DNA of 64,000 nucleotides, taken from assembly GCA_019058315.1 (NCBI GenBank), contig JAHPZH010000009.1:136307-200306 (forward strand), in the 5' to 3' direction. The notes below the pieces were generated by a model that was not told the DNA's origin, ran no database searches, and worked only from the letters and a program-made list of their open reading frames with translations. Shown piece after piece: positions 13,249 through 18,304 of this stretch. How positions within the stretch are numbered: position 1 is the stretch's first letter; every line of letters starts with the position of its first letter. This stretch comes from Candidatus Helarchaeota archaeon (GTDB lineage Archaea; Asgardarchaeota; Lokiarchaeia; Helarchaeales; RDOG01). The position numbers were made by a program, and so were the translations under genes.

Positions 13249-14931
13249 ATGATGTCTAGACTAACCGGTAAACCTGTCCTCATCTTAAAAGAAGGAAGCA
13301 AGAGAATTTCAGAACAGGATGCACTTAGGGTAAATATTTCTGCTGCCAGAACACTGGCTAATGCAGTTAAAAGTACTTTGGGGCCTAAAGGAATGGATAA
13401 AATGTTAGTTGATAGACTTGGTGGAATTATTATTACAAATGACGGAGCTACGATATTAGAAGAAATGGATGTTCAACATCCTGCAGCAAAAATGATGGTA
13501 GAAATAGCAAGAGCTCAAGATGACGAGGTAGGGGATGGGACAACAACAGCTGTAATTATTGCCGGAGAACTTCTTCGACGTGCTGAATTCTTATTAGATT
13601 TAAAATTACATCCTACAACAATAATTAGAGGATTTAAAAAAGGGCTGGAAAAAGTAAAAGAAATTCTTGAATCTCTCTCAATTAATGTCGATATTGATAA
13701 AGATACACAAATTTTAAAACAAGCTGCCATGACATCCTTAAATAGCAAATCTATCTCTGGAGTTAAAGAATTATTTGCTGATATTTGTTTCAATGCGGCA
13801 AATCAAGTAAAAGAATTACGATCTAATAAGAATTTTGTAGATATAGAAAGAATTCAAATCATAAAAAGACAAGGAAAAAGCTTATCGGATTCAAAATTAA
13901 TAGATGGAATTATTATTGAGGATCAAATTGTCCATCCTTTAATGCCTAAAAAGATTGAAGACGCTAGAATATGTATACTAGACTTACCTCTTGAACTTGA
14001 AAAAACAAAATTTGACGCCGAATTAAGATTCACTGACCCATTAGAAATGAAAAAATATCATATCGAAGAAGAAGAGATATTGAAACACTATGTTCAAAAA
14101 ATTAAAGAATCAAATGCAAACGTTGTTTTTTCAAAAAAAGGTATTAATGATATTTCTCAACATTATTTGGTATCAAATAATATAATTGGTATTAGGCGAA
14201 TCAAAAAGAAAGCAATGGAAAAATTAGCGAAGGCAACTGGTGCTAGAATAGTCTCAAATATTGAAGATCTAACTGAAGATGATATTGGACAGGCTAGGAT
14301 AGTTGAAGAGCAATTAATCGGAAATAAAAAGATAATCTTTATTAAAGGTTGTAAAAATCCAAAAGCTGTTTCTATCCTCTTAAGAGGGGGTGTCGATAAT
14401 CTTCTAGACGAAGCCGAAAGAGCTCTAAATGATGCTCTTTGTGTTGTTAGGGATATTTTATTTGAAAATAAAATAGTAATTGGTGGAGGAGCAATAGAAG
14501 TAGAGATTGCAAAATTGCTTAGAGAATTTGCTTCTTCAATAGGAGATAAAGAACAATTGACTATAGAAATTCTAGCTGACAGTATAGAAATGATTCCAAA
14601 AATATTAGCACAAAATGCCGGTTTTGATCCTATTGATAAAATTTTACAACTTAGGTCAATCCATAGCCAAGAAAATAATAAATATTATGGAATTAATGTT
14701 TTTAATGGTAAAATTGAAGATATGAAAGAAAATGGAGTTATTGAACCATATTCTGTTAAAATGCAAGAAATAAAATCTGCCGTTGAAGCAGCTTCAATGA
14801 TTCTAAGAATTGATGATGTAGTGGCTGCTAAATTAATTTCCCCAGAAGCTAAGGCAGGAATGCCAACGGGACCATTATCTGGAATGGGTGGAATGCCACC
14901 TGGAATGGGCGGAATGCCGCCAGGTATTTAA
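13249..14931 (+). CDS. ths: Thermosome (group II chaperonin) subunit
   Basis: [36 protein letters not shown]-rich tail. Confidence 0.96.
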
Positions 14932-14967
14932 AAAAATTCTTTATATAGAATAGCTCCGGTAGTGTAG

Positions 14968-14997
14968 ACGCAAATTAACGAAAATCTTGCGACAAAA
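14968..14997 (+). other. tRNA intron 1 (30 nt, position 15/16)
   Basis: GUGU-AG^A-CGCAA...UUGCG-ACAA-AA^U relaxed BHB (one mismatch in central helix). Confidence 0.82.
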
Positions 14998-15022
14998 TCC
15001 GGTCAAGCATAAAGGGCTCTCG

Positions 15023-15050
15023 TTTATACGTAATTTTACTATAAAAAGAA
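15023..15050 (+). other. tRNA intron 2 (28 nt, canonical position 37/38)
   Basis: AAGGG-CUCU-CG^U-UUAUA...UAUAA-AAAG-AA^A-CCCUU relaxed BHB. Confidence 0.86.
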
Positions 15051-15058
15051 ACCCTTCG

Positions 15059-15083
15059 GCTGCTAATTTATTAGCAGGAGGAA
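15059..15083 (+). other. tRNA intron 3 (25 nt, variable loop, position 45/46)
   Basis: CCUU-CG^G-CUGCUAA-uuua-UUAGCAG-GAGG-AA^A. Confidence 0.85.
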
Positions 15084-15484
15084 ACCCGGGTCCGAATCCC
15101 GGCCGGAGCACCAATTTTTAATTTCTAATGATTTTATTTCTTGATTTATGATCAAATCTAATTTGGTATTATTGAAAAACTATATTTAGTTAAGGCGCGT
15201 ATTGGAAAATAGAGTTAAAAAATTTTATGATTATACTAAAATGAAATTTAGCTTTAATTTGATAATATTTATAAATTATTTTTAGTTCTACTACAAAAGA
15301 AAAATAGAAAATGTTATTAGAGGAAATACGATTTTTAATGAATATTATTTCTAATAATTCAATTTACTCAAATATAAAGAGATGATGCTCAAATTAAATT
15401 AATTTGTGCTAATATTTTTTGATAATGTCTTATCTGAATTATTGAGAGTTAAAAATTTTTTCCCATATAAGAGGATATGCTAAA

Positions 15485-18304
15485 ATGTCCCAACATAATT
15501 TGAAACAAATTGATAAGATTGTTTTTGGAATTTTAGTTCCCGATAATATTCGAAAGATGAGTGTAACCAGAATTATGACTGCTGACACTTATGATGAAGA
15601 CGGGTTACCAATAGATTCTGGTCTAATGGACGGAAGGCTTGGAACGGTCGAGCCTGGACAAAGATGTAAGACTTGTGGCAATAGAGTTGGAGAATGCCCT
15701 GGCCATTTCGGGCATATTGAATTATCGCGTCCTATAATCCATGTAGGATTTGCTCCTTATATACAAAAAATTTTAAGAGCAATTTGTAGAAAATGTAGCC
15801 GAATCGTCCTAACAGAAGAAGAACTGATAGAAATTAGAACTGATGAAGAAGGAGAATATGACGAAGATATAGATTTTCAAGATAGACTGGCTTTTACTGA
15901 CACAATTTTAAAAAGAGCATACAAAGTTACCACCTGTCCTTATTGTGGAGATAAGGAACTAAAAATCGTTTTAGAAAAACCAACAACTTTTTATGAAAAA
16001 ACTGAGGCAGGTTTTTCTAGATTAAATCCCAGTGATATTAGAGATAGATTCGAACGCATTTCGGATGAAGATTGTATGCGTCTAGGTCTAAATCCAGAGT
16101 ATGCAAGACCAGAATGGATGATTTTAACCGTTTTACCAGTTCCTCCTGTATGTGTTAGACCTTCAATTACTCTAGAATCGGGTGTCCGATCAGAAGATGA
16201 TATGACTCATAAATTGGTGGATATTATTCGAATTAATCAACGGCTTAAAGAAAATATTGAAGCTGGTGCACCACAATTAATTGTTGAAGATCTTTGGGAA
16301 CTTTTACAATACCATGTAACTACTTATTTTAATAATGAAGTGTCAGGTATACCTCCTGCACGTCATCGTTCTGGAAGAGCTTTACGTACTTTATCTCAGA
16401 GATTAAAAGGAAAAGAAGGACGGTTTAGGAGTAATTTATCAGGAAAGAGAGTGGATTTTTCTGCAAGAACTGTGATAAGTCCAGATCCTAATTTAAGTAT
16501 TAATGAAGTTGGTGTTCCAAGGGAAGGAGTGGCTGAAATTCTTACAATTCCGGAACGTGTAACAGAATGGAATATAGATGAAATGAAAAATTTAGTAATT
16601 AGAGGGCCAGAAAAACATCCTGGGGCAAATTATGTAATTCGAGGTGATGGTAGAAGAATAGATTTACGTTTTGTAAAAAATAAAGAAGCTGTTGCAGATA
16701 CACTCGAACCCGGATTTATTATCGAACGCCACTTAAGGGATGGTGATGTCGTATTATTTAATCGGCAACCCTCTTTGCATAGATTATCTATAATGGCACA
16801 TGAAGTTATTGTGATGCCATATAAAACTTTCAGATTAAGTTTATGTGTATGTCCTCCTTATAATGCAGATTTCGATGGGGATGAAATGAATCTGCATGTT
16901 CCTAGAAATGAAGAAGCCCGTGCTGAAGCAAGAAATCTGATGTTAGTTCAAGAACAAATTTTATCTCCAAGATATGGGGGGCCTATTATTGGTGGAATTC
17001 AAGATTATATTTCTGCTGCATTCTTATTAACTAGAAAAAATGTATTTTTAGATAAGAAACAAGCTTGTCAATTACTAATGGCTGCGGGATACCAAGAGAG
17101 GGAAGGTAAAAAAATTAGATATGAATTACCTGATCCAGTAATTATTAAACCAGTTCCAAGATGGACTGGAAAGCAAATATTTAGTGTAATTATGCCAGAT
17201 GGTTTAAACTTATCATTAAAATCTAAAATATGTCGTAAATGTGGAAATTGTGAAAAAGGAGAATGCCCTAACGATGCGTATGTATTAGTTAGAAATGGAC
17301 AACTTTTAACTGGCGTTATAGATAAAAAAGCGTTTGGAGCAGGTCAACCTGACAGTTTACTTCATAGAATTGTAAAAGATTATAATAATAAAAGAGCTAG
17401 AATATTTTTAGACTCAGAAGCTTCCATGTTAATTGAATTAATAACTAATAGAGGTTTCTCTGTAGGAATTGATGATATAGATATTCAAGAAGAGGCACGT
17501 AATAGAATAACTGAAATATTATCTAAAGCGAATAAAGATGTTAACAATTTTGTTGAAATTTATAGAAATGGTGAATTACAAAGATTACCAGGAAGATCAT
17601 TAAAAGAAACACTCGAAATGCGAATAATGAGTGTTTTATCGGAAGCAAGAGATAAAGCAGGGGAAATTGCAGGTCAATATCTTGGAATTAATAAACCAGC
17701 TGTAATTATGACAAAAACAGGAGCTAGAGGAAATCCTTTAAATCTAGCTCAAATGGCAGCTTGTGTAGGTCAACAATCCGTTAGAGGTGAACGTATAGTT
17801 CGAGGTTACCGTAAAAGGACTTTGCCTCATTTTAATAAAAATGATCTAGGGGCGAAATCAAGAGGTTTTGTCAGTTCATCTTATCGTAGAGGTCTTAATC
17901 CAATAGAATTTTTCTTTCATGCAATGGGAGGGAGAGAAGGACTAGTAGATACAGCTGTTAGAACAAGTACAAGTGGATATATGCAAAGGAGATTAATAAA
18001 TGCACTACAAGATATAAAAGTTGAATATGATGGTACTGTTCGAAATGCAGTGGGAGAATTAATTCAATTCCGCTATGGGGATGACGATATAGACCCTGCT
18101 AAAAGTGACCATGGAAAGGCTGTTAATATTAATGCCATTGTTGAAAAAATACTAAGTCAACTTGATGAATATGAAATACCATCTGAAGAGGTTATCAAAT
18201 TCAAATTACATAAGGCCTATGATCAAGGGCTAATTTCTAAGTCGATTTTAAAAGAATTAGAAGCAAAATTATTGAAATTAAAAGCTAAAGAAACTCAAAA
18301 TTAA
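15485..18304 (+). CDS. rpoA1: RNA polymerase subunit A' (Rpo1N)
   Basis: CPGHFGHIEL, GKRVDFSARTVI, NRQPSLH, catalytic YNADFDGDEMN, DTAVRTSTSGY. Confidence 0.98.
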   Translation: MSQHNLKQIDKIVFGILVPDNIRKMSVTRIMTADTYDEDGLPIDSGLMDGRLGTVEPGQRCKTCGNRVGECPGHFGHIELSRPIIHVGFAPYIQKILRAICRKCSRIVLTEEELIEIRTDEEGEYDEDIDFQDRLAFTDTILKRAYKVTTCPYCGDKELKIVLEKPTTFYEKTEAGFSRLNPSDIRDRFERISDEDCMRLGLNPEYARPEWMILTVLPVPPVCVRPSITLESGVRSEDDMTHKLVDIIRINQRLKENIEAGAPQLIVEDLWELLQYHVTTYFNNEVSGIPPARHRSGRALRTLSQRLKGKEGRFRSNLSGKRVDFSARTVISPDPNLSINEVGVPREGVAEILTIPERVTEWNIDEMKNLVIRGPEKHPGANYVIRGDGRRIDLRFVKNKEAVADTLEPGFIIERHLRDGDVVLFNRQPSLHRLSIMAHEVIVMPYKTFRLSLCVCPPYNADFDGDEMNLHVPRNEEARAEARNLMLVQEQILSPRYGGPIIGGIQDYISAAFLLTRKNVFLDKKQACQLLMAAGYQEREGKKIRYELPDPVIIKPVPRWTGKQIFSVIMPDGLNLSLKSKICRKCGNCEKGECPNDAYVLVRNGQLLTGVIDKKAFGAGQPDSLLHRIVKDYNNKRARIFLDSEASMLIELITNRGFSVGIDDIDIQEEARNRITEILSKANKDVNNFVEIYRNGELQRLPGRSLKETLEMRIMSVLSEARDKAGEIAGQYLGINKPAVIMTKTGARGNPLNLAQMAACVGQQSVRGERIVRGYRKRTLPHFNKNDLGAKSRGFVSSSYRRGLNPIEFFFHAMGGREGLVDTAVRTSTSGYMQRRLINALQDIKVEYDGTVRNAVGELIQFRYGDDDIDPAKSDHGKAVNINAIVEKILSQLDEYEIPSEEVIKFKLHKAYDQGLISKSILKELEAKLLKLKAKETQN

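Follow-up and report, generated by a model that had tools for sequence, protein, structure and literature searches.

Does this stretch of Helarchaeota DNA encode a live tRNA-Glu(CUC) whose gene is interrupted by three introns and, if it does, how could introns that lay claim to the same exon strands be removed from a single precursor? Across the window, by which we mean the whole 64-kb stretch of DNA that was analysed, ARAGORN made no tRNA calls and Rfam gave no tRNA matches at the gathering score; the sole Rfam match at a loose E-value was a 13.4-bit partial tRNA at positions 15053–15110. The gene occupies positions 14953–15113 of the plus strand, from G1 of the acceptor stem through an encoded CCA, exactly where the original prediction had placed it. 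Excision of 30, 28 and 25 nt from the ~161-nt precursor leaves 78 nt (a 75-nt tRNA plus the encoded CCA), and removal of the introns restores a canonical cloverleaf in which pairing is intact in all stems. ARAGORN calls the 78-nt spliced sequence tRNA-Glu(ctc), in agreement with the predicted identity, anticodon and standard cloverleaf. We conclude that, as judged from its sequence, the CUC locus is confirmed as a real three-intron tRNA-Glu gene hidden from standard tRNA finders, and that it is not a new kind of thing. In our best explanation, which we consider very probable, the only tRNA-Glu(CUC) gene detected in this genome carries three BHB introns and would be processed by an EndA alpha/beta-like enzyme and RtcB, with refolding and in a non-obligatory order. 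Transcription, splicing and its order are what we infer here from the sequence anatomy, the motif statistics, the comparative boundaries and the enzyme genes.

A tRNA-Glu(CUC) gene in a housekeeping neighbourhood

The tRNA gene adjoins a thermosome gene (13249–14931, Cpn60_TCP1) and an RNA polymerase A′ gene (15485–18304), in a housekeeping neighbourhood that also contains an Lsm-like gene and a TGT-family tRNA-guanine transglycosylase gene. The thermosome protein has ~50–56% matches throughout Archaea. The host genome contains a full-length actin match (448 bits), which was found in none of the four archaeal control genomes, and this match supports the putative assignment of the host to the Asgard archaea. 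The TGT-family gene (queuine/archaeosine tRNA-ribosyltransferase, PF01702; 11133–12761) lies 2 kb upstream of the tRNA gene. Archaeal enzymes of this family modify G15, and since intron 1 lies directly 3′ of G15, this modification would presumably come after splicing. The nearness of the two genes is probably coincidental.

All four exons are on the plus strand. Exon 1 (14953–14967; tRNA positions 1–15) comprises the acceptor 5′ strand, U8 and A9, the D-stem 5′ strand GUGU, and A14 and G15; all 15 of its bases are identical to those of the compact tRNA-Glu(CUC) gene of a sister genus. Exon 2 (14998–15022; positions 16–37) supplies the remainder of the D-loop, the D-stem 3′ strand, A26, the anticodon stem 5′ strand AAGGG and the loop bases CUCUCG, which carry the anticodon CUC. 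Exon 3 (15051–15058; positions 38–45) consists of A38, the anticodon stem 3′ strand CCCUU, and C44 and G45. Exon 4 (15084–15113; positions 46–76) contains A46 and C48, the T-arm, the acceptor 3′ strand, A73 and the encoded CCA, and is the sole part of the locus matched by BLAST among 60 relatives. CCA is also encoded by most of the 21 dispersed tRNA genes listed in the genome. Two nucleotides past the CCA, a T5 run can be read from the sequence (15115–15119, plus strand) that is likely to be an archaeal oligo-T terminator. On the 5′ side, an A/T-rich TATA-like box (TTTAAAAA; 14927–14934, plus strand) lies ~26 nt from the tRNA start and overlaps the thermosome stop codon; its inferred spacing makes it a candidate promoter. 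The upstream regions of the genome's other tRNA genes showed no conserved, sharply aligned promoter box.

The T-loop of exon 4 reads UCCGAAU (15091–15097), so that position 55, a U (pseudouridine 55) in nearly all tRNAs, is occupied by C. The UUC paralog in the same genome has the normal T-loop UUCGAAU. C55 also occurs in tRNA-Gly(UCC) of the same genome (G000:C7:140908-140980), in tRNA-Glu(UUC) of two same-order genomes (L002, L003) and, within a UCCAAAU T-loop, in tRNA-Ala of another same-order genome (L037).

A pattern search with the Glu 5′ exon over the 5.8-Mb assembly (94% complete) detected two dispersed Glu genes only, one CUC and one UUC, and the present locus is the only CUC Glu gene detected. 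The anticodon CUC is the Watson-Crick match for GAG codons, which are used 110 times, versus 530 for GAA, in the window's 19 long ORFs. Given that this is the sole CUC gene detected, that GAG codons are used and that all stems pair, we read tRNA-Glu(CUC) as a putatively live gene. If the locus were a tRNA pseudogene, silent or in decay, in which insertions had built up, this would account for the three interruptions, the central-helix mismatches in two of the splice motifs described below and C55, and a separate tRNA array does exist elsewhere in the genome. However, decay would not be expected to set insertions on BHB geometry three times, nor to leave every stem of the spliced product paired, with compensatory changes relative to both the paralog and the orthologue, in the one CUC Glu gene that was detected. 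The encoded CCA and T5 run are as in the genome's other tRNA genes, and C55 is shared with the Gly, Glu and Ala genes named above. We therefore regard a pseudogene as very improbable and treat the locus as a probable functional gene in what follows.

Three introns and their BHB motifs

Splice motifs were tested with exact boundaries and with flanking helices required. A BHB motif was defined by a 4-bp central helix and two 3-nt bulges in which the splice sites lie, all exactly in register with the boundaries of exon and intron, and by a flanking helix on the outer side, the inner side or both (hBH, HBh′ or hBHBh′). In the scoring, the central helix pairs exon bases X−5 to X−2 with intron bases n−5 to n−2, and the bulges are X−1, X / i1 and n−1, n / X+1, a geometry consistent with the eukaryotic anticodon-intron pair rule. 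Chance expectation was assessed with 20,000 shuffles per intron and with 9,100 same-length placements across the window.

Intron 1 (30 nt; 14968–14997, plus strand) lies at site 15/16 in the D-loop and is of the HBh′ type, without an outer helix. Three of its four central pairs form (UGU/ACA plus a G·A mismatch), the inner helix has 5 bp (CGCAA/UUGCG) and the bulges are AG/A and AA/U; motifs as good or better arose in 7 of 20,000 shuffles and in 22 of 9,100 window placements. Intron 2 (28 nt; 15023–15050, plus strand) is at the canonical site 37/38 and has a complete hBHBh′ arrangement, with three of four central pairs (the exception is one C34·A mismatch), a 5-bp inner helix and a 5-bp outer helix that is the anticodon stem. 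For this intron the corresponding counts were 12 of 20,000 and 15 of 9,100. Intron 3 (25 nt; 15059–15083, plus strand), at site 45/46 in the variable loop, is again HBh′ without an outer helix, and here all four central pairs form, between CCUU at positions 40–43 and GAGG at window positions 15078–15081. Its inner helix has 7 bp and its bulges are CG/G and AA/A; a single shuffle in 20,000, and none of the 9,100 placements, gave a motif as good or better.

For each of the three introns, the proposed boundary pair was the best combination within a ±4 by ±4 nt grid of alternatives. The same three introns were returned as the top solution of a custom resolver that is anchored on the T-arm and acceptor and parses the cloverleaf leftwards, allowing BHB jumps, and the spliced variable loop, CGAC, is like the variable loops of relatives. 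The agreement of grid, shuffles and resolver bears out the prediction of introns of 30, 28 and 25 nt at 15/16, 37/38 and 45/46.

Intron 3 thus has a full central helix (4/4), and introns 1 and 2 belong to a relaxed 3/4 class; each of the three has at least one flanking helix. Central helices of the 3/4 class are common by chance if a flanking helix is not demanded (2026 preprint, 10.64898/2026.10.13.758758), and introns 1 and 2 do have 5-bp flanking helices. In the unconstrained MFE fold, intron 2 adopts a slipped register (UCU/AGA), and its strict 3-nt-bulge form costs +5.9 kcal/mol.

Two alternative boundaries were tried and rejected. Placing intron 2 at 36/37, which would give the loop CUCUCAA, leaves one of four central pairs, and the UUC paralog also has G37 and A38. 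Placing intron 3 at 15060–15082 also gives a 4/4 central helix, but it would leave a 6-nt variable loop, and it was rejected because all relatives and the paralog have a 4-nt NGAC or GAAC variable loop.

We also considered whether one or two of the inserts are retained in the mature tRNA, the 25-nt insert as a long variable arm or the 30-nt insert as an enlarged D-loop. Class II long variable arms measure 13–21 nt, belong to Leu or Ser tRNAs and are conserved among isoacceptors. As an arm of this kind the 25-nt insert was rejected, since it would reach 29 nt with the loop, belongs to a Glu tRNA and has no counterpart in the UUC paralog or in either Glu gene of the sister genus. Retention in some form has precedent in annotation: ARAGORN accepts related variable-region inserts in unspliced 96–101-nt tRNA-Glu of two same-order genomes (L002, L003), and tRNAscan-SE often leaves D-arm insertions in the 'mature' tRNA (2026 preprint, 10.64898/2026.10.13.758758). 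Against this, the 25- and 30-nt inserts lie exactly on BHB geometry with 3-nt bulges, as 1 and 7 of 20,000 shuffles did, and a 29-nt variable region would sit in a class I tRNA. The variable-region insert is moreover missing from a 91%-identical paralog and from the sister genus, and such inserts in relatives mostly have 4/4 central helices at their boundaries. It is hard to credit retention on this evidence, and we take all three inserts to be putative introns.

Splicing machinery, competing helices and splicing order

The genome contains two PF01974 genes, one on G000:C12 (L031:1228-1779) and one on G000:C1 (L032:1477-2079, minus strand). The first encodes an EndA alpha subunit of 184 aa whose best PDB match is the A. 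pernix alpha subunit 3p1z_B (E 3.9e-45); the alignment is gapless through the N-terminal specificity loop and places a Lys opposite Lys44. The second encodes a beta-like EndA paralog of 201 aa that has both EndA domains; aligned with M. kandleri EndA (5x89), it has Pro at the position of the catalytic His. On account of this substitution, the paralog resembles a structural beta subunit; from the alignment, we take the His in question to be the catalytic H303 of Kaneta 2018. RtcB is also encoded (582 bits). Kaneta 2018 (PMC5829648) names the specificity loop and the conserved K44 and, for the Asgard archaea, describes an (alpha-beta)2 EndA that carries the L1 loop; the host's EndA set agrees with that work and with the 2026 preprint (10.64898/2026.10.13.758758). 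The expectation of a broad-specificity endonuclease is borne out by an EndA alpha with loop and Lys44 equivalent, a beta-like paralog and RtcB. A close substrate parallel is the pre-tRNA-Glu(UUC) used as cleavage substrate in Kaneta 2018 (PMC5829648), a tRNA-Glu precursor that likewise combines a canonical with an HBh′ intron; the HBh′ intron is efficiently excised only if EndA alpha has its specificity loop. The context there is M. kandleri, a euryarchaeon with a loopless EndA, whereas the EndA alpha described here has it.

We propose that the locus would be transcribed as a ~161-nt precursor with three BHB introns, that a heterotetramer-type endonuclease, composed of EndA alpha with its crenarchaeal/Asgard loop and the non-catalytic beta-like subunit, would cut both 3-nt bulges of each motif, and that RtcB would rejoin the exons to give a 75-nt tRNA with its encoded CCA. 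Introns 1 and 3 would borrow exon strands for their central helices, from the D-stem (10–13) and the anticodon stem (40–43), respectively. The precursor could then display neither all three complete motifs nor the cloverleaf at one time, and would refold between cuts. Introns 1 and 3 would be easily presented at any stage; intron 2, the hardest to present, would be the canonical intron that is removed last.

The BHB geometry shows both of the strand borrowings that the original prediction had described: the central helix of intron 1 takes positions 10–13 (GUGU), the D-stem 5′ strand, and that of intron 3 takes positions 40–43 (CCUU), which are the anticodon-stem 3′ strand and part of the outer helix of intron 2. 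Any intron at 45/46 must use positions 40–43 by its geometry, so competition of this sort is general to non-canonical BHB introns and is not peculiar to tRNA-Glu(CUC). We estimated its cost by folding the precursor and all partly spliced intermediates under constraint and taking the gap to the MFE; these energies are thermodynamic modelling only. Forcing all three central helices to form together placed the fold 8.7 kcal/mol over the MFE. For single motifs, the gap for intron 1 was +1.2 kcal/mol in the full precursor and +0.2 to +1.2 over the precursor and all intermediates; for intron 2 it was +5.9 kcal/mol in the full precursor and +5.9 to +6.5 overall; and for intron 3 it was +0.3 kcal/mol in the full precursor and 0.0 to +2.1 overall. 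The values for intron 3 were +0.3 and 0.0 before the removal of intron 2, and +2.1 and +1.2 after it.

Introns 2 and 3 cannot display their complete motifs simultaneously, and the precursor must therefore refold at least once. Whether the order of splicing is also fixed is a separate matter. In a strictly ordered cascade, intron 3 would have to leave before intron 2 could be recognised, the anticodon-stem strand being sequestered until then. This idea draws on the inability of positions 40–43 to serve the intron 3 central helix and the intron 2 outer helix together, on the 8.7 kcal/mol needed to force all three central helices and on the somewhat harder formation of the intron 3 motif once intron 2 has gone; ordered removal has, besides, been demonstrated experimentally in Cyanidioschyzon merolae (PMC3728597). 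However, the modelled cost of forming any one motif is modest, in the precursor and in all intermediates alike. Since every BHB is formable in the full precursor, the competition imposes no fixed order and the arrangement is not a nested one: in no case did constrained folding make a BHB available only after another intron had gone. Moreover, intron 2 costs about +6 kcal/mol (5.9–6.5) with or without intron 3, so removal of intron 3 gives intron 2 no help. A strict order thus appears unlikely. Of the two elements of the original prediction, refolding stands, on account of the mutually exclusive helices, and ordered splicing does not, as the modelled energies force none. The same energies suggest a likely, non-obligatory preference in which introns 1 and 3 leave early and intron 2 last.

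This predicted order is the one seen in the tRNA-Ile(UAU) of C. merolae (Soma et al. 2013, PMC3728597), which likewise has three BHB introns, including one at a D-arm site and one at 37/38; in experiments, the non-canonical introns, which have the more stable motifs, leave first and the 37/38 intron last. That gene differs in being eukaryotic and nuclear, in having its third intron in the T-loop rather than the variable loop, and in that its motifs fold independently, with no strand sharing. In the Thermoproteales and other Crenarchaeota (Sugahara 2007, 2008; Marck & Grosjean 2003, as cited in PMC4090602 and PMC3728597), precursors with two or three BHB introns, HBh′ motifs, alternative precursor folds and an (alpha-beta)2 EndA with specificity loop are all described. 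These belong to a different phylum, and, according to the same two papers, some of their introns are nested, with the last motif formed only after the others leave; unlike these, all three motifs of tRNA-Glu(CUC) are formable, as modelled, in the intact precursor.

Intron history and the tRNA set of the genome

The paralog tRNA-Glu(UUC) (G000:C5:198977-199109; L033:178-310) has introns at 15/16 (34 nt) and 37/38 (25 nt). It has no variable-loop intron, and its CGAC variable loop is the one that splicing is predicted to give in the CUC gene; in the alignment of the two genes, intron 3 is a clean 25-nt insertion. After splicing, 71 of 78 positions are identical (91%), with a compensatory acceptor pair (G7-C66 in the CUC gene versus A7-U66 in the paralog). 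The inner helices of the paralog's introns (8 bp at 15/16 and 7 bp at 37/38) are entirely different in sequence from those of the CUC gene, although the BHB register is the same; as read from this alignment, the structure of introns 1 and 2 is kept without sequence conservation. At 37/38 the paralog has a 4/4 central helix (CUUU/AAAG), and the C34·A mismatch in intron 2 of the CUC gene arises because the anticodon differs at position 34 and the difference is uncompensated. The paralog lies 8 nt downstream of an intron-free tRNA-Asn(GUU) gene, and ARAGORN miscalls it as a tRNA-Asn(att) with a 46-nt intron.

In a sister genus of the same family, the CUC and UUC Glu genes are both compact (76 nt) and lack introns. 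Aligned with the compact CUC gene (L034), the spliced sequence is identical in 67 of 78 columns, with a compensatory change at 27-43 (A-U versus U-A), and the unspliced gene differs by three insertions of 30, 28 and 25 nt, where at least two of at least 10 nt had been set as the criterion. Both compact Glu genes (L034 and L038, in genome G001) have a T-stem A·C mismatch (CCGAG/CCCGG).

Elsewhere in the class, Glu tRNA genes have 0–2 introns at other sites: in another order these are mostly at the D-loop end and at the junction of variable loop and T-stem, and two same-order genomes have a Glu intron at 44/45. Among the Glu genes of other genomes that the resolver parsed cleanly, none is interrupted at 15/16 or 45/46; for L020, a lower-scoring parse puts an intron after the second D-loop base. 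Two exact-pattern metagenome scans found no orthologue with the same three introns, and hence no cross-species covariation is available. A BLAST search of the introns and their junction contexts against the genome for donor copies returned only chance matches of 12–18 nt (E > 0.1).

Most simply, these comparisons suggest that introns 1 and 2 either predate the split between the paralogs or came to be shared through conversion, and that intron 3 came later, in the CUC gene only. A more specific scenario, in which just one of the two Glu paralogs (91% identical) has recently acquired intron 3 and the intron also imposes a folding gate that favours its own removal before that of intron 2, is conceivable though rather doubtful; the idea of a gate comes from the capture of the anticodon-stem strand by the intron 3 motif. 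If it were true, the paralog pair with and without the intron would offer a natural before-and-after case of the arrival of a BHB intron and of its cost to precursor folding.

To place the gene among the tRNA genes of its genome, we counted introns only where the T-arm is intact and the acceptor ends pair, so that the census is a lower bound. It gave 17 genes with no intron, 16 with one, 7 with two and 2 with three in well-scoring parses, namely tRNA-Glu(CUC) and a candidate tRNA-Ile(UAU) of 182 nt with introns of 21, 57 and 30 nt (G000:C5:412296-412477, minus strand; resolver score 27). As a genome-wide tally of multi-intron genes this is partial: the seven two-intron and two three-intron genes stand, and four further multi-intron parses are not trusted. 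By this count, tRNA-Glu(CUC) sits at the top of the local intron range and is apparently not unique. ARAGORN and Rfam detect only about 37–42 tRNA genes in the 5.8 Mb, about half of them in one array (contig C3, 627.5–631.8 kb). At least ten expected isoacceptors went undetected, for example Asp, most Leu and Arg, Gln-CUG, Lys-CUU, Gly-CCC, Thr-GGU and initiator Met, presumably hidden by T-arm or multiple introns.

The original prediction regarded triple-intron tRNAs as rare and known mainly from Thermoproteales. That view is outdated, since Asgard genes with two to five introns have been published (PMC11291895; 10.64898/2026.10.13.758758). In three complete Asgard genomes, 92–95% of tRNA genes have introns, and over half have several (PMC11291895), and up to five intervening sequences occur per Asgard tRNA gene, those in the D-arm being most often missed (10.64898/2026.10.13.758758). 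These published multi-intron tRNAs (PMC11291895; Goswami et al. 2026, 10.64898/2026.10.13.758758) are the closest known counterparts of the present gene, sharing with it an Asgard host, several non-canonical insertions of ~20–30 nt per gene, sites in the D-arm and variable region, BHB boundaries, invisibility to standard annotators and an (alpha-beta)2 endonuclease. The present genome seems less loaded, with mostly 0–2 introns per gene among those resolvable in our partial census. The published studies centre on Atabeyarchaeia, Freyarchaeia and Jordiarchaeia and do not discuss competing helices or this Glu gene; the main text of the 2026 preprint (10.64898/2026.10.13.758758) mentions neither Lokiarchaeia nor Helarchaeales.

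Multi-intron Asgard tRNAs being already published, the locus reveals no new mechanism. It illustrates how Asgard tRNAs are under-called, in that the sole detected CUC decoder of a 5.8-Mb assembly is invisible to ARAGORN and Rfam, and it extends the published picture of interrupted Asgard tRNAs to a lineage whose class goes unnamed in the main text of that preprint. Its main value lies in the clean comparison of this gene (three introns) with its paralog (two) and with the sister genus (none), a set that could help to establish in what order an Asgard EndA splices and which substrates it accepts, and when the introns were gained.

One further feature concerns the Glu tRNAs of class-level relatives. 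Many of these relatives (L002, L005, L006, L010, L011, L014 and L020) have a tRNA-Glu with the anticodon loop CCUUCAC, in which C replaces the near-invariant U of position 33. The same genera also have normal genes, with CUUUCAC and CUCUCAC loops, and the CCUUCAC tRNA-Glu may represent a third kind of Glu tRNA or a substrate for editing.
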